A stretch of 64,000 nucleotides of DNA from a virus (taxonomy: Duplodnaviria > Caudoviricetes), in IMG/VR virus record IMGVR_UViG_3300020576_005257, positions 1 to 64,000 of that record. One strand, 5' to 3'. The notes beneath the pieces were generated by a model. The model did no database searches and had not been told where the DNA came from. It worked only from the letters and a program-made list of their open reading frames with translations. Positions 10,691 to 32,463 of the stretch are shown in pieces; position 1 is the first letter of the stretch, and every line of letters begins with the position of its first letter. Position numbers and translations under genes: made by a program.

Positions 10691-10891
10691 ATGGTTCAAA
10701 TCTGTCCTGATTGGGATTCTAGAACATGTTCTTTTATTTTTAGAATCAAGAATCTAAAAGTACACTTTATCAGATCTATTCGTAAAGATAATATTGCTAT
10801 TAGTAAAGAAACTGCCTCTGTTAAGCTTCTTTACTATAATACTACTTTAGAAGAATTTATGCCTCAATATATGGACTTTACCTATATATAG
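10691..10891 (+). CDS. YxxxLEEF-family microprotein
   Basis: C-terminal YNTTLEEF. Confidence 0.6.
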   Translation: MVQICPDWDSRTCSFIFRIKNLKVHFIRSIRKDNIAISKETASVKLLYYNTTLEEFMPQYMDFTYI

Positions 10892-11908
10892 TTAAAGTAA
10901 AACAAGGTTAAAAAATGAGCATTGATCTACAAGAAGATATGTTCAAAGCTGTTAATGAATTAGCAGAAACTTTAGGTGGTTGGAAGGAGTAACATGATAA
11001 TTAAAATGACTTGTCCAAGATGTAACGAAGGACACCATACTAGATATGAACGTGGTATTCTATTTTGTGATAAATGTGAGACATCAATTATTAATATAGC
11101 TCTAGGTTTAGAGCAAGATAAACTAGATATTATTGAAGTTCTTTTCTCTCAGATAAAAGAATTGAAGAATGAAATTCACGATCTAAAAATGAGTCACCAT
11201 TAATTATGTTAAAAGATTGGAAAATAAGAATACTTAAAGCTCGCTTGAAGAAAGCCTACCAATATTTACTTGAGCTTGATGATGAACTTGGTAGCTCTGG
11301 TGGTGCTCATATACTAAGTCTAATATCCTCCAAATATCAAACAGCAGCTATGAATGTAGTATTATGTTTTGAAGCTTTAAAACCACTAGATTCTAAATGT
11401 CCAGATTGTCCAGCATGGATTGAAAATGCAGCTGGCAAACATCATTACAAAGAACAAGATTTGGAAGAGGAGCTAACAAAAGCATAATGTATTTAGTAAG
11501 AGTTACTGGTATTGATTATACAGTTCAATTAACCAATACAATTGATTTTCAACAAAAAGCTTTAGCTATTTGTGGTCATGATGATCACTGGTATTCTAAT
11601 AATTTCAGAGCATGTATATGTAAGAAACTTATTATCTCTTCCATAATAGAACCCTCCTTAGTAACTGTTGTTTTTGACTTTCTTAGGAATAAATTTACCA
11701 GCGAAGAGATAGAAATGGCTAAATCTTCTCTTTATATTCATATTGCTTCTGAGCCTATAAATGATGTAGGTATGGTTTTCCTTCCTGCTGGTATGCATTT
11801 TAGAGTTAAACTTGAGGATATTTTAAAACACCCAAAAATTGAAGATGCAAGACAACACTTGTTAAGCTCTAAATTTTAATTTTTACAGAAAAAATATCTA
11901 ACTTATTA

Positions 11909-12139
11909 ATGGACTTTTCATTTTTTAACAAGAGAAAAAAACAGCAACCTAATTTTATTGGTTTTAGTCCATTTGTAGGTTTTAGCTATTCTATAGATAC
12001 TTTTACCTCTGAAGCTTTGAAGTTCAATGATTCAGGATATATAGTTTCTTATATACATTATCCTAGTAATGCTTATATATCAAAACCATACTTTTCTTAC
12101 GACTTTTCTTTAGAAATATTTACACCTTTAAGAAGATAA
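11909..12139 (+). CDS. YxxxLEEF-family microprotein
   Basis: C-terminal YDFSLEIF. Confidence 0.6.
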   Translation: MDFSFFNKRKKQQPNFIGFSPFVGFSYSIDTFTSEALKFNDSGYIVSYIHYPSNAYISKPYFSYDFSLEIFTPLRR

Positions 12140-12581
12140 TGATACCTAGAAGATGTCCATCTGATAAAATCCATTGGGGGTCAAAGTGTGATTGTATCTC
12201 TAATAATCCTCTTTATTACCATTCTGGAAGATGGAATCTAACTGAGAAAGAACAATTTGATACACCACATTCATCTCTGTCTTTCTCTGGTCAAATGAGT
12301 GGTGTTGATCTATGGTTAGCTGGAGTTAAATCTGGTATACTACTTTTTCTTATTCTTGCTCTTATAGTTTTAATAGTAATTTGGTATGAAATTAACAAAA
12401 GATAATTATGATTACAAGAAACTTTTTAACATGCACAAATTGCCAAAAATCTGATGATACAGTTATTCAAGTAATTGATATTTTTCAGAGTTTTGATGAG
12501 AACAAAGATCTATTTCTTTGTCCAGATTGTTTAACTAATTATTCAGCTTTAGTTGAACCCTCCTAAAACCTAACTACCACT

Positions 12582-13070
12582 ATGAATCAAATACTCACTC
12601 CCAAAGGCATAACTATAGGTTCTATAGTTTCTGACGTACTTACAGGTTTTAAAGGAACAGTTACTGTTCTTTATCATTCCCGTACTGGCATCTGGCAAGC
12701 TCATGTTAGATCAAATGAACTGAAAGATGGAGCTATTCAAGAAGGACATTGGTTCGAAGAACCCCAACTTGAACTTGTTAACGAAGAATCTAAATTTAAA
12801 TGTCCTGATTATGAAGATACAGGCTTTAAATTCAACCAAAAAGTAGTAGATAAGATTTCTGGTAAGAAAGGTTTTATTACTGGTTTTAGTTATCATATTC
12901 ATGGTTGTACTACAATTGAATGTCGTATTGAGCATGAAAAAGATGCAGAGAAGTTTACAGGTCGAGTAAGTTTTGATCCACAGGACCTTGAAGCAGTGCA
13001 AAATCAAATAGAAGTAATGCCTGTTTCCAAAAGAACTGGTGGTCCTATCAATAGTTCTGTAAGAGCTTAG
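12582..13070 (+). CDS. hypothetical protein with two tandem SH3-like repeats
   Basis: GSIVSDVLTGFKGTVT / NQKVVDKISGKKGFIT internal duplication. Confidence 0.65.
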   Translation: MNQILTPKGITIGSIVSDVLTGFKGTVTVLYHSRTGIWQAHVRSNELKDGAIQEGHWFEEPQLELVNEESKFKCPDYEDTGFKFNQKVVDKISGKKGFITGFSYHIHGCTTIECRIEHEKDAEKFTGRVSFDPQDLEAVQNQIEVMPVSKRTGGPINSSVRA

Positions 13071-13097
13071 ATTTTTTTACTTGAAACAATAAAAAAA

Positions 13098-13424
13098 ATG
13101 AAACCTATATATGTAATCGCAATAGTAATTTTCATTCCACTTCTCATTGCTCTTTTATGGGCTTTAAGTATTGGTGGAATTGGTCTTTCAAAAGATCTTA
13201 ACAAACGCCAAGCTGATGCTAATCGTGATGTTTATCAACATAATGCAAGTTACGTCCTTGGTAAACAACAAATTATTGGTAAGTATTTAGCTGAATATCG
13301 TTTAGCTAAAACTGAAGATGATAGAGCAGCCTTACGTTCTGTTATCAACTCTGAACTAGCCACCGTGGATCGAGCTAATCTTGCCCCTGACATTGATAAG
13401 AATCTAAAACAAGAGGGATTTTGA
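13098..13424 (+). CDS. membrane-anchored hypothetical protein
   Basis: N-terminal TM helix followed by helical domain. Confidence 0.65.
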   Translation: MKPIYVIAIVIFIPLLIALLWALSIGGIGLSKDLNKRQADANRDVYQHNASYVLGKQQIIGKYLAEYRLAKTEDDRAALRSVINSELATVDRANLAPDIDKNLKQEGF

Positions 13425-13918
13425 AAACATTTATTATTTCGTTACTTACTGTTACTGTGTTAGCTGGTTGTATGCCAGATACTAATAGTACCTCTGATTC
13501 TAAAACTGCTAAGGAACAAGAAGCTTTAGTAGAAGAAGGCGTCAACCAAACAGGAATGCCAGCAATCGTTAACTTCCAAGAGAGGAAGTTAATGAAGATG
13601 ATCTATGAGAAAAGGGATCAAGCCGATTTAATTACCTATACATATATTGTTGATATGCAAGGTAAACGACATTTCCTTACAAAGAGTATGGGTTTTGGTT
13701 TACCCTATGGTACTCAATATAGTAATCCTGAGAAACTAACCTATATTTACAATCATGGTTATTTTACTCTTCCACAAGCAGAACCTAATAGTTTGTTTAT
13801 GCCAGACTCAGCAGCAGCTACTTGGGTGATGGCTATTCCTCCTAATGGTGGAGAACCTCAACCTATGTATGTTGAAGATAACATCTTAGTTTCCCTCTGG
13901 CCCTTAACTGAAAATTAA
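13421..13918 (+). CDS. lipoprotein
   Basis: signal peptide with lipobox LAG-C. Confidence 0.75.
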   Translation: MKTFIISLLTVTVLAGCMPDTNSTSDSKTAKEQEALVEEGVNQTGMPAIVNFQERKLMKMIYEKRDQADLITYTYIVDMQGKRHFLTKSMGFGLPYGTQYSNPEKLTYIYNHGYFTLPQAEPNSLFMPDSAAATWVMAIPPNGGEPQPMYVEDNILVSLWPLTEN

Positions 13919-14146
13919 GTTTTCCTAAAAACCTTTTAGCTTATGGTTTTTGGTGGTGTGAATTTTGAATCTAATTTTTTGGATTTTGATTATCTTTACT
14001 GGAAGCATGAAGAAGAGGATGACTATTTATCTCATTTTACTGTAACTAATTTTCATGGTATTTCAGATAGAATAGAATTTGATAATTCCATTGACTATGA
14101 CCATAAGCTAGAAATTTTGGATTTTATTAATCCTTAGGAGAAAACA

Positions 14147-14722
14147 ATGCTCTTTTTTACTAACGATTTTTTCAATGATAAGCAAATAGCTCTTTTGAGA
14201 AAAGCAAAGGACTTTGCTATTAGCAAGCATAATCTTACTAATTGCACTTATGCAGGTGAACCGTATTCAGTACATTTGGAACATGTTGTTACTGTTGCTG
14301 AGGAAATATTTGATAGTATTGAAGACGGCTTTACTGAATCTCAAATTTTAATAATTCTCCAAGCTAGTTGGTTACATGATGTAATTGAAGATTGTAGAGT
14401 AAGCTATGGGGAAGTCAAAGATAACTTTGGTGTTGAAGTTGCTGACATTGTATTCAATATTAGCAATGAACTAGGCAAAAATAGAAAAGATAGAGCTATT
14501 AGAACTTATCCTAAAATAGCTTCTTGTCCTCTTTCCACTTTTGTAAAGGTATGCGACCGTATTGCTAATACTGAATTTAGTAAAACTTCAGGCCATGGCA
14601 TGTACGAAAAATATATTTCTGAGTACCCACTTTTTAAGGAAGCTTTATATCCAACTGATAGGAAATTAAACTCAGATGAAAAAGCTGCTTGGAATAGATT
14701 AGAGGCTTGTAATATTCAATGA
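14147..14722 (+). CDS. HD-domain hydrolase, RelA/SpoT/Mesh1-like ((p)ppGpp hydrolase-like)
   Basis: AISKH...GEPYSVHL..V, WLHDVIED, FGVEVADIV, VKVCDRIAN. Confidence 0.85.
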   Translation: MLFFTNDFFNDKQIALLRKAKDFAISKHNLTNCTYAGEPYSVHLEHVVTVAEEIFDSIEDGFTESQILIILQASWLHDVIEDCRVSYGEVKDNFGVEVADIVFNISNELGKNRKDRAIRTYPKIASCPLSTFVKVCDRIANTEFSKTSGHGMYEKYISEYPLFKEALYPTDRKLNSDEKAAWNRLEACNIQ

Positions 14723-15009
14723 ACATAGAACTCTTAACTCAAAAAGTTTTTAAGATTCTAGAAGTAGAACTTGACCTTGATCTTTTTCTCAATATAAAAC
14801 TTACTGATCATTTGAAAGATGATCTTGAAGCTGATGAACTTGATCTAATTGAACTCTTTATGGCTTTTGAAGAAGAGTTTGCAATTGATATTCCAGACGA
14901 TGATGTAGTTCAACTAAAAACAGTTGTAGACTGTATAAATTACCTTGGACACAGATTAAATGTACATAATCTTCCTTCAAACTCACAATATTACTTGGAT
15001 ATAAAATGA
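14719..15009 (+). CDS. acyl carrier protein-like protein lacking the phosphopantetheine Ser
   Basis: DDLEADELDLIELFMAFEEEFAIDIPDD aligns with ACP helix II (DLGADSLD..ELVMALEEEF..EIPDE); DSL is DEL here. Confidence 0.85.
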   Translation: MNIELLTQKVFKILEVELDLDLFLNIKLTDHLKDDLEADELDLIELFMAFEEEFAIDIPDDDVVQLKTVVDCINYLGHRLNVHNLPSNSQYYLDIK

Positions 15010-15798
15010 GAAAAGTACAAACAAGAAAAGAACAAGTAGAATGGCAAGATCTGAATTTTGACGAAAGAGAATTGTTCCGGAAAGCTAATAACTTGGATGA
15101 TGCTATTAAAGGAGTTAATGCTTTTCTTAGAACTAATAGAGTAACCACGCTTAGTTGGATGGATTTACCTCTGTTCTTAAATTCTAATCTTTCAACTCAG
15201 AAACAGAACTCAAATTGTTTTGAACTAACTAACTTAGGAAAAGATTTAATGTATGAGATAACTATAGCTGAGTATGATGTTTCTTTCAATAGTATATCTA
15301 ATTGTATAAGAGTACATTGGGGAAGAAATAAACATAAAGAATCTGAAAAATCCTTAATGGAAAAATATTAAATGAACGATTTTACATTACATCCTTATTG
15401 CGAAGCTCTTAGAATAGCTTTTCATGAACGTAGAGTATTAAGAGCTTCTAACATAGTTTCCCTTCAATTTGATGAGCAGACTGAAATTTTCTATGATGAA
15501 TCTGATCAAGAAAAACTAGCTAATGATGAAGAAGCTGTTATTCAAATACTGGAAGAAGGGCATAAAGAATTTGGTATCTTTGTTCAGTCTAGTTCTGATA
15601 GTTTAGTTCCTACTTCTCAATGGCTTTTTAACTGTACTCCTTATAAGGTAGTTACTACTCTTAATGATTGTACAGAAGTAATCCAGTATGGCTGGGAACA
15701 CAAAGAAACTGGTTACCTTTATGATAATTTAGTGCAGCCTACGGAAGATAGTATATTTCCTGATAGGAAAGTAACACATTTCTTCTTTTTGAATTAAA

Positions 15799-16167
15799 AT
15801 GGAATCTCTGACACTTGATCCTAAAAATGAAATTTTGGATCAGCTATGCCCCATAGGTGGATTAGATAGTTTACCTCCTAGAATATATTTACTAAGAAAC
15901 GATACTAAGTATATTTTTATGTCAGTTATCCTTACTGGAAAGGATAAGATGAGATTGCAGTTACTTGTAGGATCTAAAACTGGTGATGAGGCAATTAAGT
16001 TTAGAGATAGCTTGGGATCTTTAGGTATTGCTAATCCAGCTGCTTTTGAACCATATCTATGTCCTTTTGAGGAAGCTAGAGAAATAGCTATTAGAAATAG
16101 TGCTGATGGTATAGGTATCCAAAAAGATGGTAACTTTCCAGAATCTCAAATACACTATGTAAAGTAG
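15799..16167 (+). CDS. hypothetical protein, paralog of 35581..35928
   Basis: shared PxxGL, FExARxIA and IHYVK C-terminus. Confidence 0.65.
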   Translation: MESLTLDPKNEILDQLCPIGGLDSLPPRIYLLRNDTKYIFMSVILTGKDKMRLQLLVGSKTGDEAIKFRDSLGSLGIANPAAFEPYLCPFEEAREIAIRNSADGIGIQKDGNFPESQIHYVK

Positions 16168-16169
16168 CT

Positions 16170-16598
16170 ATGAATGTAATTCTTTCCTTTGATAATGAAT
16201 ATTCTTTTCTTAGTAACTTTGCACCTTGTGAAATTGAGTATGAAGGTTTAAAATTTACTTCTCTAGAAGCAGCTTATCAAGCTGCTAAATGTGCTGATAA
16301 AACACAGATGATTCAGTTTACTACTTTGACCCCTGGCAAAGCCAAAAAGTTAGGTCAAATAGTAGATTGTGTAGAAAACTGGCATGATATCAAAGATTCA
16401 GTCATGACTACACTCTTAGAATCTAAATTTTCCAATAACAATCCATTACTATTAAAGAAGCTATTAGCTACTAATGGTATGGATTTAGTAGAAGGTAATA
16501 CTTGGAATGATACTTATTGGGGGGTTTGTGACGGTGTAGGTCAAAACAAACTCGGTAAGCTATTAGTAGCTGTAAGATCAAAAAGATTACAAGAATGA
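16170..16598 (+). CDS. NADAR (YbiA-like) protein
   Basis: FLSNF, EAAYQAAK, LVEGNTWNDTYWG, GQNKLGKLL. Confidence 0.9.
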   Translation: MNVILSFDNEYSFLSNFAPCEIEYEGLKFTSLEAAYQAAKCADKTQMIQFTTLTPGKAKKLGQIVDCVENWHDIKDSVMTTLLESKFSNNNPLLLKKLLATNGMDLVEGNTWNDTYWGVCDGVGQNKLGKLLVAVRSKRLQE

Positions 16599-17719
16599 AA
16601 TATTTAGGAATTCTTGACTATAACCCATCTATATTTAATTATACTACTAGAAAATTTATGCCTAAATATAAGTCTAAATTTCTTTTAGAATCCAAATATC
16701 CTTTAATATTTATTTCCAATCATAACCGATTCTTTCTCTCTGGTTATATTTATTATTGCTTTTTAGAAGAATATGGAATACTTGAAATTGATGGTTTCTA
16801 AAATTTACTCTTTTTTTGATTTTGATGAAAACTTATTTTATTATACAACAGGAGTATCTTTTTATATAGCTTGGTATAGTAATGACATTATTACTATATA
16901 TAGATCTGATTCTTTTCTTCGTTCCTATAGTACAACACTTGAATTTTTTGTTAGTGGCAATCTCATTTCATAATGCAATTCCAAGTATTCCATCAAACAG
17001 TTCATTTTGTTTATAGTGAATTCCCACACTATAAACATTTTGAGATAATAATTAAGCATATACATTTTAACTTGTATTGGTGGTATTCCCCAATACTAGA
17101 AGAATTTTATAAAGGAAATAGATCTGGATATGTCTTATAAGATTTTAGAAACACTTTATGAAAATACTGGTTCTGAAAATTCAGAAAGTTTGTATATTGT
17201 AGTTAGTAATAATTGTGTATACAAACTTAGAACCCGTCAAACCAAACAAGGAAAAGTTGATTTATTTCTTTCACCAGGTCAGTTAGAAGATGGGTTTACC
17301 TTTCCACTACAAGAAGTTAAATATCTAGTTAACAAACACAACTTAATTTTTGATAACTATGAAATATAAACACTTTTCAAATGTTTATTTTAATGCAACA
17401 TTATTCCCACACTTTATGTATGGTAAAGAGCTTAACTGTTCTTTAGGTAAGTATTTTTCTGTAAAAGGAATACTTTCTTTTAGATATGATCCTCAATTAG
17501 AAATGTTTTTTCCTGAGAACTATGATTTATAAACCTACTGAGTTTGCAGGAAGATATAACTATCATCATCCTATAACAAACAAACACGTTGATATCTGTT
17601 TGCTATACATATATACAGAACTACGTAGAAATATTGAATACTTTATTTCCTTTGACAAATCATTCTCTTCGTATCTTCTTTATTCTTGCACTTTTGATTC
17701 CTTTTTGGGAAGGTTTTAA
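16595..17719 (+). repeat. cluster of 5 YxxxLEEF-family microprotein genes (16595, 16773, 16973, 17350, 17522), interrupted by unrelated 17130..17369
   Basis: YYCFLEEY, YSTTLEFF, YSPILEEF, YDPQLEMF, YSCTFDSF. Confidence 0.7.
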
Positions 17720-19056
17720 CCTGCATCCCAAGCTGGAGTACCACTAGTAAACTTAGTAGCTCTTGTTAACTCTGTAATAGCAGTTTGAGCAAAAGTTAAA
17801 TAATCTTTGGTAAATAGTCCAAAGTCATATGTATTTCCTATTCGGTAATCCACATCATGTAATGTGAACCACATAACAGGAATACCAAACCTTATAGCAT
17901 TTCTTGCATAATGTTGGTACCAAATAGATCTGTCTTTTGGATTACCATATTTTAAGCTTCCAATTTCATTAAGAACAATACTTTGATTATAAGTATTACT
18001 CCAATTCTTCATTGTCTGGAAAATTGCTATAACTTCATTTTCTCCAAATACTCCACTATCTCCTAAATCGCTTAGAATAGTGGCTGCTACCCATGATCCA
18101 CCATTAGTAAGGTAAGTTCTAATAGCAGCAGTATTAGCAGTAGTAGCTGGATAAGGTACTGCATATCCACTTGCTGCTGATAAGTTTACTAGCATTGGCC
18201 AACTAGGACTAAATGGACTACCAGCATGCGTAAACCAAAATGGAGAATAACAGTGAATAGCTATAGCCGTTTTAGTATCACCAATTCTTGAAGTCCAATA
18301 AGCTAAAGTTTCTGGGCCAGAATAAGAATGTGTAGTTGCTATAATCCAATTATTAGGAAGTATAGGTCTTATATTGCTAATAACCTCTTCCTGCCTAGCT
18401 TTCCAAGCAGTAACTACATCTGCTACAGCCATAGCACTTCCAGTAGCAAAGGACCCAGGACTGTTCCAATTTGAAGTAGTTTTTATAGTTCCTATTTCAT
18501 TAGCTAATTCTAATGCTACTTTATGGGCTGGAAAACCTGTAACCATATTTGCTATTTCTAACAAATAGTTTTTCCATCTAGGTTCTTGATTATTTACAAT
18601 TCTGCTCCAATGCCAAGTATCTCCAGCTATATGGCATAGATCAAGCATAACTGTAATACCATGATCTATGAAAGCTTGAATCTTATCTTGTAGGAGAGTT
18701 TTATTAGTTTGTGTAATTGTCCAATTACCACCTCCAACTTCTAGAACACCGCTGCCTACTCCTGTAAGCACCGCAGGATCTGAAATGATTCTTACACTCC
18801 TAACACCATTATCATACATGGACTGAATAATATCATCAGAAAACCATGCTCTTCTAGTAACATCTGAAGATGGGCCATATGATTGTAACCAACCAGCAAT
18901 ATTAACACCCTTGTCAAAATCAGCTAAAGGTTGGTTCTCATAGAAGTCTGTCGTAGTATCATTACGAAGACTATTAGATCCAAAAATACTAGGAATTGAG
19001 GATGGATCACTCATTCTCCCTAGAATGGACCATATTTGTGGTTGTTCATAAGACAT
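17716..19056 (-). CDS. glycoside hydrolase family 5
   Basis: KGVNI, VRSVRI, VMLDLCH, LELANE (acid/base), HCYSPFWFTH, IVLNEIG (nucleophile). Confidence 0.88.
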   Translation of the reverse strand: MSYEQPQIWSILGRMSDPSSIPSIFGSNSLRNDTTTDFYENQPLADFDKGVNIAGWLQSYGPSSDVTRRAWFSDDIIQSMYDNGVRSVRIISDPAVLTGVGSGVLEVGGGNWTITQTNKTLLQDKIQAFIDHGITVMLDLCHIAGDTWHWSRIVNNQEPRWKNYLLEIANMVTGFPAHKVALELANEIGTIKTTSNWNSPGSFATGSAMAVADVVTAWKARQEEVISNIRPILPNNWIIATTHSYSGPETLAYWTSRIGDTKTAIAIHCYSPFWFTHAGSPFSPSWPMLVNLSAASGYAVPYPATTANTAAIRTYLTNGGSWVAATILSDLGDSGVFGENEVIAIFQTMKNWSNTYNQSIVLNEIGSLKYGNPKDRSIWYQHYARNAIRFGIPVMWFTLHDVDYRIGNTYDFGLFTKDYLTFAQTAITELTRATKFTSGTPAWDAG

Positions 19057-20218: not shown

Positions 20219-20312
20219 ATTTACACCACTACCAAAATTCAATTTAGGGGGTAAAACTGTCTATGAATTAAGATATAATATACTTCATACTCTTCTCCAG
20301 AAACCTCAAAAA

Positions 20313-20338
20313 AAGGGGGGAAACCCCCTTCTATTTTT
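20313..20338 (+). terminator. putative intrinsic terminator
   Basis: AAGGGGG-GAAA-CCCCCTT stem-loop followed by T-rich run. Confidence 0.55.
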
Positions 20339-21180: not shown

Positions 21181-21259
21181 GCAGTAGTAGCTCAGTGGTC
21201 GAGAGCGGGGACCTCTAAATTCCTGTCATTCATCGGGGGTTCGAATCCCCCCTACTGCG
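21181..21259 (+). tRNA. amber suppressor tRNA (anticodon CUA)
   Basis: perfect GCAGTAG/CTACTGC acceptor, GCTC/GAGC D stem, GGGAC-CT-CTA-AA-TTCCT, 10-nt variable region, GGGGG-TTCGAAT-CCCCC, G73; followed by CTA rather than CCA. Confidence 0.85.
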
Positions 21260-21267
21260 CTAACTTT

Positions 21268-22509
21268 ATGAATAACTTCTTGATATTTTCCTCACCAATA
21301 GGTTGGGGGCATGTATTTTTCTATCCGAATAATCTATTTTCTTTGACTTTATCTCAAAATGTTCTTACTATTGGCAAATTAAAGTCTGCTTCTTCACTAG
21401 AAAGAACTTATACTGTATATGATACATACAATAGTAACTATGAAGAATTTGATACACTTACTTATTCTTGGATAATGACTATTTCATATGAATATATTAA
21501 CTTAATGTTAAAGAAAACTGATGCCTAAACATATTGGTTTATATTCAAAACTTACAATTTTTCACACCTATGACTATGGTAGAATAAAGTCTTGGTTAGG
21601 AATATATTCAAGAAATCTTTATTTTGGAGTACATTCATTAAAGGGAAAAGTTGTTTATAATGTTATATATAACCAACAGTTTGAGGAGTTTGAAAAGGTT
21701 ACTTATAATGATATTTAGAGGACTTATTAACAAAGCTACCTTTCCTCCTTTGTTTACCTACTCTAGTGAGTTAAACTATGCTATTGGAGTTTTAAATATG
21801 CATAACCTCCATAGAGATTCAATTTCCTTATTTTCCGCTCCTACTCCTATAGTTAACTTTAATAATTTTTATTTAGGTCTACTTTTGTCAGTATCAAAAA
21901 TTCATTCTTATAATCTTCATCTTGACCAATACGTTACTTATAAGGTTTAAATGAAGTATCTAAATTTTGGAGTTATTCTTAATAGACTTTTACATCAAGT
22001 ACGCTATGATTCAGTAACATTTTCTAAAATACTAGAAGGAAATATTATTTATATTACTAAGAATAGTCAACATAACCTTGTGTATGATATTCTTTTTGAG
22101 GAATTTAGATAGTAAAAAATAATGTCTTCTTTAGAGAATTTTAAATTTAGTGATTTTACAAGACACGTAGATGCTATTAACCTTGAAGGCTTTATTTATG
22201 GAAACTTGCTAATTTATCTAATTTGGGATAAACAAAACATAAGATTTCTGTCTGATTATCCCCAACAGGTTTTTAAAGTTAGTCCCCATTATTATCATTC
22301 TTTTCTTTACTCTTTGAATTTGGATATGTTTTAATATGATATATAAACACTTTAGTTTTTCTGGCAAAAATACTGCATTTTTATATTCATACCCCAATCT
22401 ATTTTTCTTTGACTTAAATATGAATAACAGAATAACTATAGAAAAAAGAAGAAGGTCGTTTCGTGCCAACTTTTCCTTTTTTGATTTGTCAATGGAGTTT
22501 TATTATTAG
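21268..22509 (+). repeat. cluster of 6 YxxxLEEF-family microprotein genes (21268, 21521, 21651, 21951, 22122, 22336)
   Basis: YNSNYEEF, YNQQFEEF, YNLHLDQY, YDILFEEF, YSLNLDMF, FDLSMEFY. Confidence 0.7.
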
Positions 22510-23419: not shown

Positions 23420-23431
23420 GACCAGAGGGTA
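23404..23431. terminator. 28-bp perfect palindrome over the Pth-like stop codon
   Basis: TACCCTCTGGTCTT|AAGACCAGAGGGTA. Confidence 0.6.
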
Positions 23432-23442
23432 AACTGATTTCA

Positions 23443-26004
23443 ATGTTTATAAATCGAAGTTATAGTTTTTTTTACAATGAAGCAAAATTTGAGCCCACTA
23501 ATCCTACTGATTGGGATCTATATTTTTGTATTGATTACCATATCTCTCTTGTAAAAATTTCTACTTTTGATCAACTGTTTTCTAATAAAAAATGCCTTTC
23601 CTATGATTTTAAAATAGAAGCATTTATATGATATGAACTTCTTTGATTTTACATATTCTAATACTCCTCTTGGTACTTTTTTTGAATATAGAACTAAGCC
23701 TGTTGCCTTATTCAATAAAAATACCATTCTTATAGAAAATACATTTGGATCAATTTTAAGATTTTGTGGTGGTTTACTCTTTATGTTTTCTTATAACTCT
23801 AATTTAGAGGTGTTTGGATATCCAGACTAACTTACCTTATATGTACGATAGAAATGGAAAATATAGTTGGTCCTCTAATGATACTAGAAACTTTCTGTTT
23901 CAAGTTTTGTATCGTAAAGACATACTAATAATGCTACCTAGCTATGGTGAATTTTACTATTACCCAGACCTTGAAGAATTTTCCTTACATTAGTATGTTA
24001 ATTTTATATAATCACGCTTTAAAATATATTCCTCTTAGTCACCAAAGTCTCTCTAAATATCAATTTCTACCATCTAAGCCTTCTGCAATTACTCTCTTTA
24101 CTAGGTTTACTAGACCTATTTTTTATGAATGTACATTAGAAGAATTTATTTGATTATATGAGCGTATTTCTTGCACTTTACAATATAAGATTAAAACGTT
24201 CTTTTAATCTTATATTTAATCAAATTACAAAGAAACCTGGATTTAATTTTCATTATTCAAAAAATGGTCAATATACATGTCTGTTTGATTCTAATCAACC
24301 ATATCAAATAAATTTTTATTCTTCTTTTTTTGTTAATGGAATTTATCTTATAAGGCCTTGGCCTAGTACAACTTTTGTTTATAACTCATCCTTGGATGAG
24401 TTTGAATGTTTATGAAATATCTTTCTAATGATCCTCCTGGAGAGACTCAAATGCCTTTTGAAATAAGGCATTCTTATGTATATACTATTGACAATCTTCC
24501 TAAGATTATTATAGTTCAACTAAAGAATTATTTTCTGTTCGAATTTTATCCTATTAAAGATATTTATAAAGATGTTTACTATCAATTTAAATTGGAAATT
24601 TTTGAGAGGATAAGAAACAATTACTTATGATAAAATTAGCTACTAAGAAACCTTTAAAGGATGCCATTATTGGTCAAGTTGTACTACTAAATGGTAATCC
24701 TAGAATAGTCAAAAAGATAAAGAAACCTTTTTTATTTAGAACTACCTATACAGTAGTTTTTGATGACAATAGTACTATAGCTTTTACTAATACAGATCCT
24801 TACTACACTTTATTATTTCCTTTTTGGATGAGTATGGAAGATTATCAAGAAGATGTTAGAATGGGCGAACTGCCTGTTAATGAATTGTGGTTAGAAGATA
24901 ATCCTGTTTCTTTAGTAGAAAAACCAAAGAAAAATGTTCAAATTATTGAAATTAAGAAAAAACAAATAAAACTTAATTCTACTAAAGAAAATTGTGATTG
25001 TGGAAATGATTGTGAATGCAAAACCCATAAAGACTAACTTCCCAGCATCTATTACTGGTAGAATTTCTGTGTCAGGTTTTCCTAATCGTAATCACATTAT
25101 AATAACTAATTTTCTTGATTACGATAAAGTTAATTTCTATGATTCAACCATTTCTTTTGGTTATCAAAAAAATAGTCTATATAACAGTTTTAGTAATACA
25201 CCACGTACTTTCTTCTGGATAACTTCTGACATGTCTACCTATGTTTCACAATATGAAGACTTTGAGAAGCCTACAGGATTTAAAGTTAGTTGAATACTCC
25301 TTTAACTTTGGATATATTAGAACTTTCTATTAGGAAAATATTTAGCCAACCTGTAACAGGACCTCATGTTCATCCTGTATTTTTTCAAGATATGGTACAC
25401 ACTGAAGGTAAAGTTTATTTTCATAAATCAGAAACCACAAAAATAATAGTTTTTTGTGAAGGTTTTCAATTTGTTTTTCTTCCTGATGGTAAATTTATCT
25501 CAGCACAATTTTATCCTCTTTCTCACTTTTTTAATTCTAAAGATAAATTATTCTATTTACTACAATATGATATATTTCAATTGGATTCTTGATTATTATG
25601 AAATATCATAAGTATGAAAATCAATATTATCCAGCGTGGATAGGAGGAGAACCTCTTGGTTTATTTTACTATAACTCACTTACTTTATTTGTATTTAAAA
25701 CTCAAGAACAACTTATTTTATTTTCTAAAGCTGTTAATGGTATACAGAAATTCAAATTTCCAGATTTACTTTTTGGTTACGAGGTAAATTTAGAAGATTA
25801 TTTGTGTGATAAAATATAGTGCTATACGATATATTTAAGTTTGATAAATATTCAACTGGAAGTAATGAGATTCATTACATAGATAAAAATTCTAAGTTAT
25901 TGATGACTTTCTGTTTCAACCATCTTTGTTTTTTTGAAACTGATTGGCGTATATATTTTGCTTATGATTTTTCATTGGATGAGTTCGGAGTTTCTCATGT
26001 ATAA
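23443..26004 (+). repeat. cluster of 10 YxxxLEEF-family microprotein genes, interrupted by unrelated 24627..25037
   Basis: YDFKIEAF, YNSNLEVF, YYPDLEEF, YECTLEEF, YNSSLDEF, YQFKLEIF, YVSQYEDF, YLLQYDIF, YEVNLEDY, YDFSLDEF. Confidence 0.75.
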
Positions 26005-26007
26005 TTT

Positions 26008-26024
26008 TAAAAACCCTTTATGGT
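26008..26024 (+). promoter_or_regulatory. TAAAAAC-N4-TATGGT motif, candidate phage promoter
   Basis: same motif at 37016-37032 and 42935-42951, all at gene boundaries. Confidence 0.5.
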
Positions 26025-26339
26025 ATGGAAAAAGTACTAACTCAACAACCTGAAGAAACTCACCGTCAAAACGTGACTTGGTTAAAAGAAAACAACCTAG
26101 ATATCACGTTTACTTATGAACAACAAAAGAAGAAACGGCATACTAGGCAAATAACAATTTGCATAATCTCCCAAAACAAAGAGGAGATTGCTAGAGGAAT
26201 AGCTATTCAGAATCCTTCTGATACTAACAACCGTGTAGTTGGTAGAACTCTCTCTTTCTTAAATGCTACTGCTCAACTTGAAGAGGACCTTAGAAAGGCA
26301 ATTAGAGCCCACTCACCCATTAAGATGAGGCAGCACTAA
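26025..26339 (+). CDS. conserved phage hypothetical protein
   Basis: TICII...ARGIAIQNPSDTNNRVVGR pattern. Confidence 0.6.
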   Translation: MEKVLTQQPEETHRQNVTWLKENNLDITFTYEQQKKKRHTRQITICIISQNKEEIARGIAIQNPSDTNNRVVGRTLSFLNATAQLEEDLRKAIRAHSPIKMRQH

Positions 26340-26348
26340 GATTACAGT

Positions 26349-26380
26349 GTGGATATAGCTCAATGGCTTAGAGCGACTGT
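26349..26380 (+). pseudogene. 5' half of interrupted tRNA (His-like)
   Basis: GTGGATA-TA-GCTC-AATGGCTTA-GAGC-G-ACTGT; pairs with 27104..27138. Confidence 0.8.
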
Positions 26381-26390
26381 AACCTTTATG

Positions 26391-26433
26391 CATTTGGATG
26401 TAACAAAATCTTATCTTTTGTTACATCCAAATG
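26391..26433. repeat. 18-bp inverted repeat over the HNH stop codon
   Basis: CATTTGGATGTAACAAAA-TCTTATC-TTTTGTTACATCCAAATG. Confidence 0.8.
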
Positions 26434-27079
26434 TGGGTGTTTGAGAATGACAATTAGGACATAATAATCTTACATTGTCTATAGAGTTATTATTTGGATT
26501 ACCGTCAATGTGATCTAGTTGTAATACTAATTTCTTACCTTCCCATTCCTCAGAAAGACCACAAACCTTGCAAACATTAAATCCTAAATGTTTTAGTGCC
26601 CGTTTCAGCGTAAAATTAGTTTTAATTTCATTATCTTCTAATCTTTCTATTCTTTTTGTTTTCATATGTTCTTTGTAGCAATTTCGAGAACAGTAAACTC
26701 CTCTTTGTTTTTGTATATTATTATTACAAAACTTACATATTCTTTCAGTTTTTACTTGTTTAACCTTATTTCTGTTTTGGTATTTAGCATTACAAGATTG
26801 ACAGCAGAAATGGTTTTTTGATTTCTTAATGAGAGACGTTCTTTTGAAAAAAGTAACAGAACAATTTGTACACTTAATTTGTTCTTGGCTTTGCCTATGC
26901 AAAGCGAAACAAGCTACTGAACAAAATTTATGGGCTCTATTTGTTAATTTACCTGATAACACTGTTTGTACTTCATGTTTCTTCTTGTAAAAACTACATT
27001 TACAATGGTAACATTCTAAAGGAACTATTGCTCTAGATTTCAACATACTAAATTCTTCATTCGTAATTAACATCTTCAT
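26411..27079 (-). CDS. HNH homing endonuclease with Zn-finger repeats
   Basis: CKVC...LQLDHIDGNPNNNSIDNVRLLCPNCHSQT; FCSxxC repeats. Confidence 0.9.
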   Translation of the reverse strand: MKMLITNEEFSMLKSRAIVPLECYHCKCSFYKKKHEVQTVLSGKLTNRAHKFCSVACFALHRQSQEQIKCTNCSVTFFKRTSLIKKSKNHFCCQSCNAKYQNRNKVKQVKTERICKFCNNNIQKQRGVYCSRNCYKEHMKTKRIERLEDNEIKTNFTLKRALKHLGFNVCKVCGLSEEWEGKKLVLQLDHIDGNPNNNSIDNVRLLCPNCHSQTPTFGCNKR

Positions 27080-27103
27080 TGTTATAACTTAGTGTTGTCT
27101 CTA

Positions 27104-27138
27104 ATAGTAGATGGCGAGTTCAATTCTCCCTATTCACC
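27104..27138 (+). pseudogene. 3' half of interrupted tRNA (His-like, C73)
   Basis: ATAGT-AGATG-GCGAG-TTCAATT-CTCCC-TATTCAC-C; anticodon loop absent. Confidence 0.78.
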
Positions 27139-27218
27139 CCCTAGTTGATTAAAATCTTTTTGTGAACTTTAAGTTCAACCTATGTTATCCGATTAGAGAA
27201 AACAAGGATCTCGCACTT

Positions 27219-27254
27219 GCAGGACCATTCCCGATTAGGTGGTCCTGCTTTTTT
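27219..27254 (+). terminator. intrinsic terminator
   Basis: GCAGGACCA...TGGTCCTGC followed by T6. Confidence 0.75.
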
Positions 27255-27458
27255 CCCTAAAGACATGTATTATAGGTCTATTGGATACAACAAAGGTAAA
27301 ATATTTCTATGTTTTGAGCATGGTTCTTTTGTTCGTATAGCTTATCAAATAGAACACAAAATTATTAGCCTAACCCTTTTATGGAATTTAGACATCGCAA
27401 TACATTATAATCAGGCATATCCCCAATATATATATATACGATTACTTACTACAACAAT

Positions 27459-29504
27459 ATGTCACTGAATGGTAGATATCACTTAGAATTAGATAATAAA
27501 ATATCTATTGCTGTCCTTCCTCCTAGAAAAGAAATAGTTAAACTGGGAGGATGGACTTATAACATATTCATTAATAGTAAAAAACATTATGGCTTCTTTG
27601 GTGTTAATCCTAACTCTCTCAAACCTCTTCTTAGAGAGAATATTAATATAACTAACGTTTGGAAAATAAACAAATTTGCTATATCTCAAACTCAGTCTCA
27701 TTATTCAACTAATCTGGAAGAATACGTTTTATGAAAAACTCTTTAATTCACACTGTAACTCATGCTTTTGTGATACAAGTTGGTCATAGGTCTAATTATT
27801 CTAAATTATTTGGTTCTAGGTATAGAGCAGAGTTTGATAAGCAAGTAGATAAACTATGCTTAAAACTGGAAAAATATGGTCATGTTGTTTCTATTGACCA
27901 GGGAGAATGGGAATTCTTTTTAGTTATTACTATCATCACTGATAAGGAGTTTAACTCTCTCTTAAAGCTAATTGAAAAAGATTTGTTATCTTGTTTTCCT
28001 CAATTAACAGATCAACCAGTTTCTGAAATACAAAAAGAAGTTGTAGTTAAAAAGACAACTTCTAATAAAAAACCTATAGTAATAGAAGAACCAGTTTTAA
28101 TTCCACCTAAAAAAAGAGGAAGACCAAAAAAGGAGTAGCAAAGTTATGGGAGTATTAATAGTAGTTTCTACATGGTTATTCTTTATAGTATTACAAACTA
28201 TATACCATATAACCCGAAATAAGTCAAACGAAGAGCATATCATTCCTCCAGTATTAGACTTGATATGTCAATCGTTTTTCTTCACAGTTATTACTGTATT
28301 TTTACTTGTAATGATATTTAGATGATATTTCAAAAGTTTATTCTATTTCCACCAGAGCTTTGTTTTGTATATCACAATCTCCAATTTTTTAACTTAGAGC
28401 ATTTCAAGTTTATTTCTGTTTCCATAGCTAATCCTAATCTTTCCTTTCCAATTGATTATTACTATGAACTAGAAACTATGTCTATACCTAAACAATGAAA
28501 TTTCTAACATATGTTAGTCCTCTTTGTCTTTTTTCCTACGATAACTCAGTATTCAATAAAGCGACATTTTTTCCAGTTATATATATTTATCTTTCTCCAT
28601 ATGGAGGCAGTTTTGATTATCATTATGAATTAGAAGCTTACTTTAATGATATATAAAAAATATAATAACAACCTATCTCAGTTTGTTTATGATATTGGTA
28701 TTACTGAAATACATATTAATCCTACAAGAGAAAATTCTAGTATATTTGTTTGGAATTGTACTTTAGATACTTCAATGTATACGATTGGATCAGTTCTTCA
28801 TAGAATAATTTTAAACTACTCTTTACCTTTAGAATGCTACCTCACCAAGTAAAGTACCTGTGTTGTGATTTAAACTACAATAGTGTTACACTTAGTTATG
28901 GTTTACCATGTGATAAACTTGTATTCATTTATGGGCCATTTTATAATCATATAACATTAACAAAGTTCGGTCCTGAAAACATTGCAGCTACAGGTACTGT
29001 CATCTTTAAATTTAAAGTACACTATAATCCAGTGTTTGAGGAATATGTTTAATTCTTTTCAACTAGAAGGATTCTGCTTCAATTATGAAAGAACTATACC
29101 TTTAGGTTCTTATGATAAACTTTCAAAGTACTATAGAATACATGAGTGTGGTCATTATTCTGTTCTATTTTCCAAAAGTATCTATCCACGTATTCCATGG
29201 TATTGGGATAATTATATAAGGCTTGGCCCTGCTAAATACGATTCAATTTTTGAGGATTTTAGTAGAGTCTATTAAAATGAAATTCAAAGGGTTATCGTCG
29301 TATAATAATCTTTTCTATTATACAAGTGAACGTGGTATTCCTACTTTAAATTATACTCTTCTTATAGTTTATCCTTTTGATAAGTTTCTTATCAATTTCA
29401 CTATTAATCAATATAGGGAAAATAATTCAGGAACAATGATTGTAGGTCCAGCTTATCAATTAAACTATGATCAGTTTCTATCAGGAGAGGTTTACAAAAG
29501 ATAA
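27459..29504 (+). repeat. cluster of 7 YxxxLEEF-family microprotein genes (27459, 28322, 28495, 28646, 28834, 29045, 29277) with unrelated ORFs interspersed
   Basis: YSTNLEEY, YYYELETM, YHYELEAY, YSLPLECY, YNPVFEEY, YDSIFEDF, YQLNYDQF. Confidence 0.7.
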
Positions 29505-29533
29505 ACAATTTTTAACAAAAAAGGGGGTTATGC

Positions 29534-29808
29534 GCCCCAGTAGCTTAGTGGATAAAGCAACAGCCTTCTGCTAATAATATAACAGTGGGCCTTATAAGGG
29601 AAACCCTATAAGTGTAAGTTGTCAAATTCGGTGAACGCTAAAGAGAAATCCATGCCAATACCGAGCCAAGCCCTTTATGGGAAGGTGTAGAGACTAGACG
29701 GCAACTACCTAATCTCCTTTGGAGTAAGGTAAAGGTATAGTCCAACGAGTCAGGAAACTGACATAAAGTTGAAGCTGTTTATCGGAGGTTCGAGTCCTCT
29801 CTGGGGCG
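29534..29808 (+). tRNA. tRNA-Arg(UCU), exons 29534-29569 and 29772-29808, split by group I intron
   Basis: spliced: GCCCCAG-TA-GCTT-AGTGGATA-AAGC-A-ACAGC-CT-TCT-AA-GCTGT-TTATC-GGAGG-TTCGAGT-CCTCT-CTGGGGC-G. Confidence 0.9.
29570..29771 (+). ncRNA. group I intron, subgroup IC3 (Azoarcus-like), 202 nt, no ORF
   Basis: P1 UCU/GGG with U.G at splice site, P2 GAAA loop, TGTCAAATTCGG, CCGAGCCAAGC, GAAGGTGTAGAGACTAGACGGCA, ATAGTCCA, P9 GTCAG-GAAA-CTGAC, P9.0 AAC/GTT then terminal G. Confidence 0.93.
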
Positions 29809-30334
29809 CATAGCTAATATTATTTAATTCTAGTAAACCATGATCAAGTTCCCAATGACAGTTGGGACAAAGTGCTATAAGGTTTTCTATTTTGTTTATT
29901 TCTGAAACTGGTGTATTATCTGTGTGTGTACTAATACCTTTTATATGACAAATTTGTACATGTTTCTTATAAGAACACCTGGAACAGGGGCAATTTTTGC
30001 CATATGTATCTATATAGATTTTCCTTGCAAGAGTTCTTATAGCTGAATTTTTTTGATATTTTCTTCTTTCTACCATTTCCCCATAAGTAACTTTTTCCCA
30101 ATTTATCCCATTTAGTGTTCTACAATCTTTACAATATGTATAATCTGATCTTATTAAATTATTGCAAGTTTTACATATTTTTGTTCTCTTTCTTTTAGGA
30201 GTTAAATTTGTAAACTTAGCAGCGCAAGATCTAGAACAAAAGGATAATCCTGATTTTGATTTGTTTAAGTCCTTTTTTCTAATTTCTCTTTTAAACTCTT
30301 CCTTACAATTACCACACGTATAAGTTTCTACCAT
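29750..30334 (-). CDS. HNH homing endonuclease (paralog of 770..1477)
   Basis: KHVQICHIKGIS...SEINKIENLIALCPNCHWELDHG; C-terminus runs antisense through the tRNA-Arg 3' exon. Confidence 0.88.
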   Translation of the reverse strand: MVETYTCGNCKEEFKREIRKKDLNKSKSGLSFCSRSCAAKFTNLTPKRKRTKICKTCNNLIRSDYTYCKDCRTLNGINWEKVTYGEMVERRKYQKNSAIRTLARKIYIDTYGKNCPCSRCSYKKHVQICHIKGISTHTDNTPVSEINKIENLIALCPNCHWELDHGLLELNNISYAPQRGLEPPINSFNFMSVS

Positions 30335-30359
30335 ACTAATATATTAGTGTTGACATAAC

Positions 30360-30389
30360 TCGGAGGTTCGAGTCCTCTCTGAGGCGCCA
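30360..30389 (+). pseudogene. displaced duplicate 3' end of tRNA-Arg with CCA
   Basis: TCGGAGGTTCGAGTCCTCTCTGAGGCGCCA; first 28 nt are 27/28 identical to 29782-29809. Confidence 0.88.
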
Positions 30390-30407
30390 TTTTATTAACA
30401 TCTAAAT

Positions 30408-32463
30408 ATGAAAATACAATTTAGTAAAACAGATTTCTATGATGGAAGTAATTACTTCTATCAGGATAATCGTGGTATATTCATGTGTGCATTTCTTCCA
30501 ATATTTTACAATGATATAGAATTAGTAAAATTTTACTTAGATAGTATTAAAAGATTTCCTTTAGCTATTTATAGTTCTATTTTAGAACAATATGAAGAGT
30601 ATTAAATTTTATATGAAATACTGGGATGCTGATTGGTATGTAGATAAAGGTTGGTTCTTTAGATATGATTCTATTGGATTTCATATTGATACTATGAGTA
30701 CCATTAGAGTCTTTTATAGGGCAATAACAATTCCAGCCCTTCGTTATTGTCCTACTTTAGAAGAATTTAAGTAATATTATGTTTCAACACTTCTTCTTTG
30801 AGTTTAACACTATTTCTTTCTCTTATGATGTATTGAACTTTTTTATGAGAAGTTATCCTGATTTTGGTGATATTATTCCTTATAGTTACCATAAAGAAGG
30901 TAGAGTATATTTGCAATCTTATTACTCAGATTTAGAAAACTATGCATAGTTATCATGGTCTTTATCTACCACATGATGATAGAAGATTTGTATATACAAT
31001 CAATAATTTATATGCTGTTCATATTTATTACAATGACTTAAATATTATTAGAATAGCCTTTGTAGATTTATGTAGAGATCAAATTCATTATAACTTTTCA
31101 TTAGAAGAATTTTCACATAAAATATATGAATATTTGTTTCAATAGACTTATTAATTATTCTGGAGTTATACAGTATAACTATACGTCGATACAGATTTGG
31201 CATTATTCTGCTCGCCCTCAAGTTATACAACTTCTTTTAAATACTACTAAAATTGTTTGCTACTATTATCCCCAATTAGAACAATATGAATAAAACTAAA
31301 CCTTCGAGAAAATATATTCGATTTTTCGAATATATTTATGTTAACTTAGGTTTTATTTATCGTTGGGATAATTACCTCCATAATATTCATATTTTTTATG
31401 ATCAAAATGCGAGGATCATTGGTATAAATTTTCCTTATCAAAGTACAATAACTATTTATTATAACTTAACACTAGAAGAGTTCAAAAAGATTTAACCTGT
31501 AATATGAAATTTTTCAACTACAATAATAGTCACTTTTATTATTCTTCAACTGTTTTTACTAGCAGATACACTTCTTATTGTACAATTTGGAAAAGATATA
31601 TTAAAAACCCTAATTACTCTGAAAGAGTTATATATCATTATTCTTTAGAAGATTTTAATTCACTGCCACCTGTTCCTGGTATAATTTTATGGTTGCCAAA
31701 AACTGTTCATAAACTTCTACAAGCTTATAGAGAGAAATATGAAAGTTGAAATAGAAGTAGTATCGTCCAATACTTATGAGTACCACTATAAGAAACCACA
31801 AACTCACATTACAGCCTGTGTTGGCGATATTAAAGAATGCGTATATTTAGATTTCACAAAAAATTTGGGTGCTGGTTTTAAGAATTCTAAAAGCTTGGAG
31901 TTTGATTATATATTATCTCTAGATGAATTTGTTGAACATGTTTGGATATGAAATATAGTCTCTTTGATTTCAATACGTCTAATGATTGTGGTTTTTGTTA
32001 TAACTCAACAGAAAAATATTTTCAAGTATTTCCTCAATTTTTTGATGTAGATATTATTCGTTTTATAAATAAGAAATACTGTTACTCAACTGTTCTTGAA
32101 CAGTTTATTTTTTTAGATGACTTATAAAATATTTGGAAATAGCTGGCCTTCATTTGACTACTATAAAATTGACTTACTAGATAGTAAGTCAATTTTTGTT
32201 TCTAGAAATAGGAAACATTTCATTTTGTTTACCTTATCTGACCTTTCCTATGATACTGTACTAGAAGAGTTTTATATGATATGAAATACATAAAATTTTT
32301 TGATCAGCTTTTTGTTGAGACTGTTTTTGATTATCGAACTAAAAGTGATTCTAGATTTTATTTAAATATATATCCTAGTGTCACCATTAAAAACTCAATA
32401 AAATTTGAGAAAAACCTAAGTTTTACATATAATTTCTTATTTGAAGAATTTACTTCACCTTAA
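30408..32463 (+). repeat. uninterrupted cluster of 11 YxxxLEEF-family microprotein genes
   Basis: YSSILEQY, YCPTLEEF, YYSDLENY, YNFSLEEF, YYPQLEQY, YNLTLEEF, YHYSLEDF, YILSLDEF, YSTVLEQF, YDTVLEEF, YNFLFEEF. Confidence 0.8.

Follow-up and report, generated by a model that had tools for sequence, protein, structure and literature searches.

The internal protein (IP) loci of T-even phages consist of tandem small genes that are almost wholly different between and even within phages, share a short constant terminal word and encode counter-defence cargo, of which IPI* acts against a type IV restriction enzyme. In IPI-III of T4 this word is the capsid targeting sequence, an N-terminal stretch of about 10 residues with a prohead-protease site at its end, outside which nothing is conserved. 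The multigene families (MGFs) 110, 360 and 505 of African swine fever virus (ASFV) are lineage-specific, rapidly evolving families of variable copy number that lie in plastic regions and are linked to host interaction. In the jumbo phages G and 121Q, a single uncharacterised gene family fills same-strand arrays with more than 30 copies, which have been described as "very similar genes" and interpreted as the result of genome growth through duplication (Hua et al. 2017, mBio, PMC5646251). Here we describe a family of very small proteins encoded in tandem at positions 10691-32463 of a 64,000-nucleotide stretch of phage DNA, called the window below. The window makes up the first 64 kb of one contig of 234,927 bp and 36% guanine plus cytosine (GC), which is classed as a virus in IMG/VR (IMGVR_UViG_3300020576_005257) with a CheckV completeness of 95%. 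The phage is jumbo myovirus-like because a contig of this size encodes a tail sheath, a portal and an HK97-type capsid protein (PF25209), all on the minus strand at about 172-190 kb.

With 46-47 profile-supported same-strand copies in a genome of more than 200 kb, the locus resembles the arrays of G and 121Q (PMC5646251). It differs from them in that its copies are far from very similar, with a mean protein identity of 18%, a maximum of 34% and no DNA similarity, and also in its very small units, its aromatic-core signature and its layout as six dispersed clusters plus singletons. No recurrent PHROG was found among 39 members and no match among 50,697 GenBank phage records that would relate it to the array families of known jumbo phages. 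The array is thus of a known kind, a large jumbo-phage paralogue array, but the sequence family is one without a known relative. The T-even IP loci share with it the tandem arrangement of small divergent genes and the short constant terminal word. Here, however, the word is C-terminal and reads L-[ED]-x-[FY], with a variable residue two after the Leu and no L/I-x-E; [FY]8, F19, Y21, I36-F37-I38 and F50 are conserved as well, and copy number is roughly ten-fold higher. Like the ASFV MGFs, the family is lineage-specific, fast-evolving and variable in copy number in plastic regions, although ASFV belongs to another virus realm, MGF proteins are much larger, and there is no relation in sequence or fold.

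A family of small proteins and its members

We searched open reading frames (ORFs) of at most 130 amino acids (aa) for the pattern Y...[LFY][ED].[FY] within 12 residues of the C-terminus. Between 10691 and 32463 it occurs in 36 ORFs, all on the plus strand and none on the minus strand. By comparison, 100 dinucleotide shuffles of the region gave a mean of 0.12 matches (maximum 2), and 300 residue shuffles inside the real small ORFs, which keep their aromatic richness, gave 0.32 (maximum 3). The shared C-terminal motif seen in a preliminary description of the window is therefore strongly enriched over shuffled ORFs. Genome-wide the pattern matches 45 times, and eight of these matches form a further cluster at 64.4-66.7 kb, just past the end of the window.

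BLAST-level clustering recovers no family, the members being too divergent, whereas an iterated profile hidden Markov model (HMM) converges on 46 ORFs genome-wide (E<=0.01), 39 of them in the window. An additional ORF at genome positions 65185-65406 lies below the cut-off (E=0.017) and was counted as one more; the second cluster, when defined by the profile, has 7-8 members at genome positions 64674-66690. All copies are on the plus strand, in six clusters plus singletons, and judging from these searches the genome would hold about 47-50 paralogous genes. On a rough estimate, 8-10 kb of DNA and about one gene in seven or eight belong to the family. In a six-frame search the profile recovered 37 members from the phage's own genome (positive control) and zero from ten capsid-related phage contigs of similar GC (53-194 kb, 25-84% complete), and a compositional artefact is therefore ruled out.

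The candidate members in the window are listed below with strand, C-terminal motif and HMM E-value.

10691..10891 (+), singleton, YNTTLEEF; E=2.7e-11, with motif
11909..12139 (+), singleton, YDFSLEIF; E=2.3e-8
13943..14137 (+), possible degenerate member, YDHKLEIL; weak, E=1.2 only
16595..16801 (+), cluster 1, YYCFLEEY, start overlaps the stop of the upstream NADAR gene; E=1.1e-7
16791..16973 (+), cluster 1, YSTTLEFF, ATG at 16791, longest ORF from 16773; E=3.4e-6
16973..17140 (+), cluster 1, YSPILEEF; E=2.7e-8
17359..17532 (+), cluster 1, YDPQLEMF, ATG start, begins MKY; E=5.5e-9
17522..17719 (+), cluster 1, YSCTFDSF; E=9.8e-7
21268..21528 (+), cluster 2, directly after the CUA tRNA, YNSNYEEF plus a 25-aa tail; E=3.5e-10
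21521..21718 (+), cluster 2, YNQQFEEF; E=3.3e-7
21708..21950 (+), cluster 2, YNLHLDQY, ATG at 21708, longest ORF from 21651; E=1.8e-8
21951..22112 (+), cluster 2, YDILFEEF; E=6.1e-9
22122..22334 (+), cluster 2, YSLNLDMF, strain variant P0006 in public data; E=1.1e-8
22336..22509 (+), possible degenerate member, FDLSMEFYY; position and composition only, absent among the profile matches listed
23443..23631 (+), probable degenerate member, YDFKIEAF, motif with Ile for Leu; absent among the profile matches listed
23633..23830 (+), cluster 3, YNSNLEVF, the folded member (pLDDT 77.5, six strands; see below); E=5.3e-9
23841..23993 (+), cluster 3, YYPDLEEF, ORF from TTG 23814; E=1.6e-7
23995..24153 (+), cluster 3, YECTLEEF, ATG at 23995, longest ORF from 23944; E=7.9e-5
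24158..24415 (+), cluster 3, YNSSLDEF, mostly deleted in strain L002 (189 nt); E=1.7e-10
24412..24630 (+), cluster 3, YQFKLEIF, begins MKY; E=5.3e-6
25069..25293 (+), cluster 3b, YVSQYEDF, ORF from 24994, start uncertain; E=6.9e-12
25308..25592 (+), cluster 3b, YLLQYDIF, ORF from 25290, start uncertain; E=4.1e-9
25598..25819 (+), cluster 3b, YEVNLEDY, begins MKY; E=8e-11
25819..26004 (+), cluster 3b, YDFSLDEF; E=8.2e-7
27459..27734 (+), member with an N-terminal extension, YSTNLEEY, pN/pS 0.32 against L002; E=5.3e-9
28322..28498 (+), cluster 4, YYYELETM; E=1.3e-7
28495..28656 (+), cluster 4, YHYELEAY; E=9.4e-6
28646..28852 (+), cluster 4, YSLPLECY; E=3e-9
28834..29052 (+), cluster 4, YNPVFEEY; E=6.9e-7
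29045..29275 (+), cluster 4, YDSIFEDF, ATG at 29045, longest ORF from 28982; E=1.6e-3
29277..29504 (+), cluster 4, YQLNYDQF, ATG at 29277, begins MKF; E=3.7e-10
30408..30605 (+), cluster 5, YSSILEQY; E=4.8e-9
30592..30774 (+), cluster 5, YCPTLEEF, modelled at pLDDT 60 only; E=1.3e-9
30779..30949 (+), cluster 5, YYSDLENY; E=2.3e-4
30942..31145 (+), cluster 5, YNFSLEEF; E=5e-10
31126..31293 (+), cluster 5, YYPQLEQY; E=1.4e-7
31286..31495 (+), cluster 5, YNLTLEEF; E=3e-10
31504..31749 (+), cluster 5, YHYSLEDF plus a 30-aa tail; E=1.5e-6
31739..31951 (+), cluster 5, YILSLDEF; E=5.6e-8
31948..32127 (+), cluster 5, YSTVLEQF, begins MKY; E=6.1e-10
32117..32284 (+), cluster 5, YDTVLEEF; E=1.7e-7
32281..32463 (+), cluster 5, YNFLFEEF, begins MKY; E=1.5e-6

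The preliminary count of 42 ORFs was about right, in that 39 have profile support in the window, although some of the ORFs then listed are weak or unsupported. The extra or short ORFs at 28322, 31504 and 21268-21528 are all supported by the profile. Those at 22336 and 23443 keep a degenerate motif but have no support among the profile matches listed, and 13943, proposed as a singleton, has its motif-like ending but the weak E-value given above. ORF 27217-27468, also proposed as a member, has no profile match among those listed and coincides with a strong terminator hairpin at 27219-27248 (intrinsic-terminator-like, with an 11-bp stem and a T-run). Because of this hairpin within it, the ORF is probably not a gene, and the transcription unit probably ends there, after a minus-strand HNH gene.

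The tight head-to-tail packing could be put into numbers: when ATG starts are set to coincide with the start of the profile, 31 junctions inside clusters fall between -20 and +14 nt, 19 being overlaps. The N-terminal M-K-[YF]..F and the F-x-Y further on correspond to profile positions 1-11 and 19-21. At the DNA level, self-blastn of the region yields one 44-nt match between members, at 82%. An old, diversified library of small proteins that forms a single family, as first proposed, is supported by the low protein identities, this lack of DNA similarity and the single profile.

Relatives, selection and turnover between strains

No relatives of the family were found outside the lineage. Against Pfam-A and PHROGs, searched with single members and with 39 aligned, no family was matched by more than one of the 39 members even at E<=10; a sequence profile search of the PDB gave 0 matches at E<=10, and tblastn and blastn of the members against the GenBank phage records gave none. 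The family thus matches no characterised one in any of these four collections. The phage as a whole likewise has no nucleotide or protein match among the 50,697 GenBank phage records. An exhaustive profile search of 1.84 billion cluster representatives returned eight proteins at E<=0.001, seven of which are the phage's own proteins or a one-residue strain variant; the eighth (P0005, 1036 aa, matching in five short stretches) was dismissed as compositional. A DNA-pattern scan of IMG/VR for two adjacent motifs gave 28 loci with no credible profile match (best E=0.018, a single ORF), single-protein searches with the helicase, HD and sigma-like proteins found only near-identical strains or nothing, and literature word searches found nothing specific to the family. 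Relatives of the capsid protein exist in metagenomes at 40-69% identity, and 17 such IMG/VR loci were recovered. Judged from these searches, the family is restricted to this phage lineage among the sequences searched.

One of the relatives, G002 (IMGVR_UViG_3300020576_005620, 194 kb, capsid 51% identical), is the only one among five records compared that contains the early region, and it is collinear with the window. Gene order is kept for the orthologues of window genes 5937, 14147 and those from 38348 onwards, and the slot bounded by the HD gene and the orthologue of 38348 is similar in size, 26.8 kb in G002 vs 24.2 kb in the window. The window family is absent from this slot. In its place G002 has a different tandem orphan array of 12 paralogues of 90-125 aa plus 7 weaker matches ("family B"), located as follows.

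L032:11660-16120 and L033 about 11860-14430, equal to G002 26.6-31.1 kb and 46.8-49.4 kb (+), paralogue array of family B

Family B has no Pfam or PHROG match. Its proteins begin M-K-x-E-F-x-[ST]-L-E-E-F and have in common a C-terminal block Y-x-G-K-[IV]-V-x-I..P-Y. It shares with the window family the slot and its conserved flanks, the strand, the tight packing of small orphans and a loosely similar [ST]-L-x-x-[FY] word; it differs in its larger proteins (90-125 aa), in the N-terminal position of the word and in its C-terminal block. Homology between the two families was rejected: hhalign gives a probability of 0.4%, and nothing aligns beyond a word of five residues, LEEF with the [ST]-L-x-x-F at the N-terminus of family B. 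The second cluster of the window family (64.7-66.7 kb) lies in a stretch of about 9 kb that is absent between the adjacent G002 orthologues. Given the different slot content and this insertion, the family occupies plastic slots between conserved modules, and relatives fill the slot with expansions of their own.

Three metagenomic contigs from close strains (L002, L013 and L014, 90-99.8% identity) allow the evolution of the members to be followed over short distances. L002 (JGI 3300020577) shows two clean deletions relative to the window, one of 189 nt (24150-24338) and one of 177 nt (27269-27445). The first takes most of member 24158-24415, while the 2.4 kb around it match at 99.8%; individual copies can thus be dispensed with and turn over. 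The identity of L002 to the window is itself mosaic along 7 kb (99.8%, 94.8% and 89.8%), a pattern suggestive of recombination within the array among strains that occur together.

Ratios of non-synonymous to synonymous change (dN/dS, here pN/pS) were obtained from Nei-Gojobori counts. Against L002, dN/dS is 0.50 for 16 members vs 0.13 for 7 neighbours, and against L014 it is 0.43 for 11 members vs 0.05 for 8 neighbours. The pooled pN/pS of the members is 0.49, which is below 1 with p=1.2e-6, and the 12 conserved profile columns show amino-acid differences between strains at half the frequency found elsewhere (16/286 vs 108/1020, p=0.012). The members are under purifying selection because pN/pS is significantly below 1 and the conserved columns are protected. 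The counts thus indicate a non-synonymous evolution 4-8 times faster than that of neighbouring genes, yet under purifying selection that is strongest at the conserved positions, and by this measure the array ORFs are real genes selected at the protein level.

Predicted fold and possible functions

The members have a median length of 68 aa as longest ORFs and about 55-75 aa after start refinement. Compared with the large proteins of this genome, they are 2.3-2.5 times as rich in Tyr (9.7%) and Phe (10.1%) and contain 0.3-0.5 times as much Ala and Gly, and no hydrophobic segment of transmembrane length is conspicuous in them. The profile reads M1, [FY]8, F11, F19-x-Y21, I36-F37-I38 and F50-x-Y52-[NSD]-x-x-L56-[ED]57-x-[FY]59. 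Its conserved positions run along the whole domain of about 60 residues with an i, i+2 spacing of the β-strand type, and E57 is the sole conserved polar residue. Information content peaks in the C-terminal block (Y52 4.9 bits, F59 3.5, E57 2.9, L56 2.4), which is followed by 0-10 residues in most members and by 25 and 30 in two. From a start-refined alignment, AlphaFold2 (AF2) models member 23633 with a predicted local distance difference test (pLDDT) score of 77.5 and a predicted template modelling (pTM) score of 0.49, as six antiparallel strands (3-11, 14-21, 31-36, 41-46, 50-55 and 60-62); in this sheet the motif covers the last part of strand 5, a turn and strand 6. Fold searches with this model gave best Foldseek E-values of 0.89 (PDB) and 0.5 (BFVD), and a wide VIA-align search gave a best Z of 5.5, below the level expected for unrelated folds, with no more than background similarity to generic antiparallel sheets. 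In the model, the shared residues look mainly like the core of a small β scaffold and not like a detachable tag. The constant C-terminal docking element on a free surface, as envisaged in the preliminary description, is not borne out, given that conservation spans the whole domain, that 0-30 residues follow the motif, and that it lies within the sheet in the better model. The exposed Glu and the aromatic face might nevertheless serve in docking.

Our best explanation, which we hold with moderate confidence, is a lineage-specific orphan family built on a small aromatic-core β domain with a variable surface, whose members would most likely act as host-directed or counter-defence binders. Each protein would be a single, small all-β domain of about 55-75 residues, in which the conserved aromatic and aliphatic residues ([FY]8, F19-x-Y21, I-F-I, F50-x-Y52, the turn and L-E-x-F) fill buried or packing positions. 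These constant residues would supply the scaffold, leaving nearly all other positions free to vary. The genes, placed head to tail and packed or overlapping in long plus-strand operons of a plastic accessory region, would be gained and lost as single copies between strains, and their products would be diversified early or accessory binders aimed at variable host or competitor molecules, for host take-over or counter-defence. The accessory operons that hold the members run on the plus strand, a long way from the structural block of the minus strand (about 100-193 kb), and the neighbouring genes (tRNAs, homing HNH, sigma-like, NADAR and HD genes) are accessory or early in type. Gene neighbourhood, strand and distance from the structural block suggest expression early or in mid-infection, and a binder or counter-defence function would agree with the usual reading of lineage-specific multigene families in large viruses.

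Several points weigh against this explanation. The proposed fold comes from one medium-confidence model made with a paralogue-only alignment. The AF2 model of member 30592, likewise from a paralogue alignment, is poor (pLDDT 60), its only feature being a short helix at LEEF with the best local pLDDT of the model (76), so that the two models differ over the motif (helix vs strand). Isoelectric points span 4.3-9.8 and point to no common ligand, and a pN/pS near 0.5 also fits a partly relaxed constraint. Finally, the ten capsid-related contigs are all fragments, and the closest capsid relative (69%, the 245-kb ENA contig GROS21-1_SAMEA9560528_METAG-scaffold_68) lies outside the scan, so that absence from the whole clade is not proven.

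The idea of a portable element deserves separate consideration. Y-x3-L-E-x-F might be an amphipathic helix (Y, L and F at i, i+4 and i+7, with one acid) that brings about 50 cargo or adaptor bodies to one shared phage or host partner such as the E1/E2-like system of the phage (E1-like gene at 45992-48574), a protease or an ATPase. We consider this rather unlikely, although the C-terminal block has the highest information content, E57 is the only conserved polar residue, LEEF forms the short helix just mentioned in the first AF2 model, and the unrelated G002 array has a loosely similar N-terminal [ST]-L-x-x-[FY] word. Conservation equally strong occurs far from the motif ([FY]8, F19 and Y21), with β periodicity, and the variable distance to the C-terminus and the place of the motif in the sheet of the better model also speak against a tag. 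As to G002, the motif fits only 3/12 members of family B, whose hhalign probability was given above, and [ST]-L-E-E-F, a generic helix cap, can also be read in an unrelated protein of 137 aa that is conserved in these phages. A combined form, in which an aromatic-core β-scaffold binder library uses an invariant Tyr/Glu/Phe patch to dock about 50 variable bodies on one shared phage machine (e.g., an E1/E2-like conjugation system or a protease), seems quite unlikely to us. If it were true, the family would serve as a set of adaptors through which a single enzyme is redirected to many host targets, and no such mechanism has been described in phages.

Packaged cargo, in which conserved termini would target the proteins to capsid or tail and variable bodies would be injected against host defences, is suggested by the anatomy of the T-even IP loci, likewise tandem small genes that share little beyond a short terminal word. 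Here, however, the word is C-terminal, no conserved cleavage context follows it, and it reads L-E-x and not the L/I-x-E of T4-type prohead proteases. Together with the distance of the plus-strand operons from the structural block and the conservation over the whole domain, this makes packaging improbable.

It is highly improbable that the ORFs encode no meaningful proteins and are decaying duplicates, fragments of a larger repeat protein, or carriers of a DNA or RNA signal such as a re-initiation element before the next start. The motif DNA does often lie 5-20 nt upstream of the next ATG with no evident Shine-Dalgarno sequence, GC is low (27-30%), and pN/pS is 4-8 times that of the neighbours. 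But the motif Leu uses synonymous codons of both families (TTA 16, CTA 7, CTT 5, TTG 4, CTG 1), which a DNA or RNA signal would not tolerate, and the motif persists in singletons and in the last members of clusters, where no family gene follows. Since 99% of members have Met at profile position 1 and adjacent units lie in different frames, the units are not fragments of one decayed repeat protein; the lack of minus-strand ORFs with the motif, the pN/pS significantly below 1 and the protected conserved columns also argue against this reading. Precursors of ribosomally synthesised and post-translationally modified peptides, with many variable cores behind one recognition sequence as in prochlorosin-type arrays, would likewise come as many small tandem genes with conserved termini and variable middles, but they are extremely improbable here because no modifying enzyme occurs among the scanned neighbours (NADAR, HD, ACP-like, sigma-like, HNH and GH5), Cys is at 1.2% with enrichment in Tyr and Phe and not in Cys/Ser/Thr, and conserved positions are found near the two termini as well as in the middle of a predicted folded β domain.

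Genomic setting and implications

The array, with its low GC, is flanked by NADAR, HD, ACP-like and sigma-70-like genes, and the window also has five tRNAs, 3-4 HNH genes, a GH5 glycosidase, helicases and a DUF2201/VWA protein (54668-55882). The ACP-like gene (14719-15006, PP-binding, E=5e-6) follows the HD-domain gene in the same operon, an unusual pairing for a phage early region. One of the tRNAs (21181-21260), directly upstream of cluster 2, has a CUA anticodon and is of the amber suppressor type. TAG is an ordinary stop in this phage (14/164 large ORFs), and amber read-through of the family was considered and rejected: nine members end in TAG, and read-through would mostly add 0-8 residues before a second stop. 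A scan for sigma-70-type promoters found 104 sites vs 102 in shuffles, i.e., no excess, and strong terminators turned up at just two positions, 20313 and 27219.

The minus-strand HNH gene (29750-30334) between clusters 4 and 5 is bracketed by a 28-nt direct repeat (96% identical, 29782-29809 and 30360-30387), which resembles the trace that a mobile HNH cassette would leave when inserted at this site. A second expanded family, seven "conserved-Cys" paralogues of 186-317 aa, is encoded at window positions 38904-42917 and genome positions 66700-69594, that is, a few kb downstream of the main small-protein cluster and directly after the second cluster. From these positions, both expanded families occupy the same plastic regions.

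Gene callers have partly missed the family, as just 8 of its approximately 47 members can be retrieved from the library of 1.8 billion proteins. Its existence indicates that jumbo phages can build and keep very large sets of tiny proteins that evolve fast and are housed in defined plastic slots. If the members are host-directed binders, they would be a source of new anti-defence or host-takeover activities and would offer a very small natural β scaffold; if they are not binders, they would still be a clean case of how a multigene family originates and turns over in phages.

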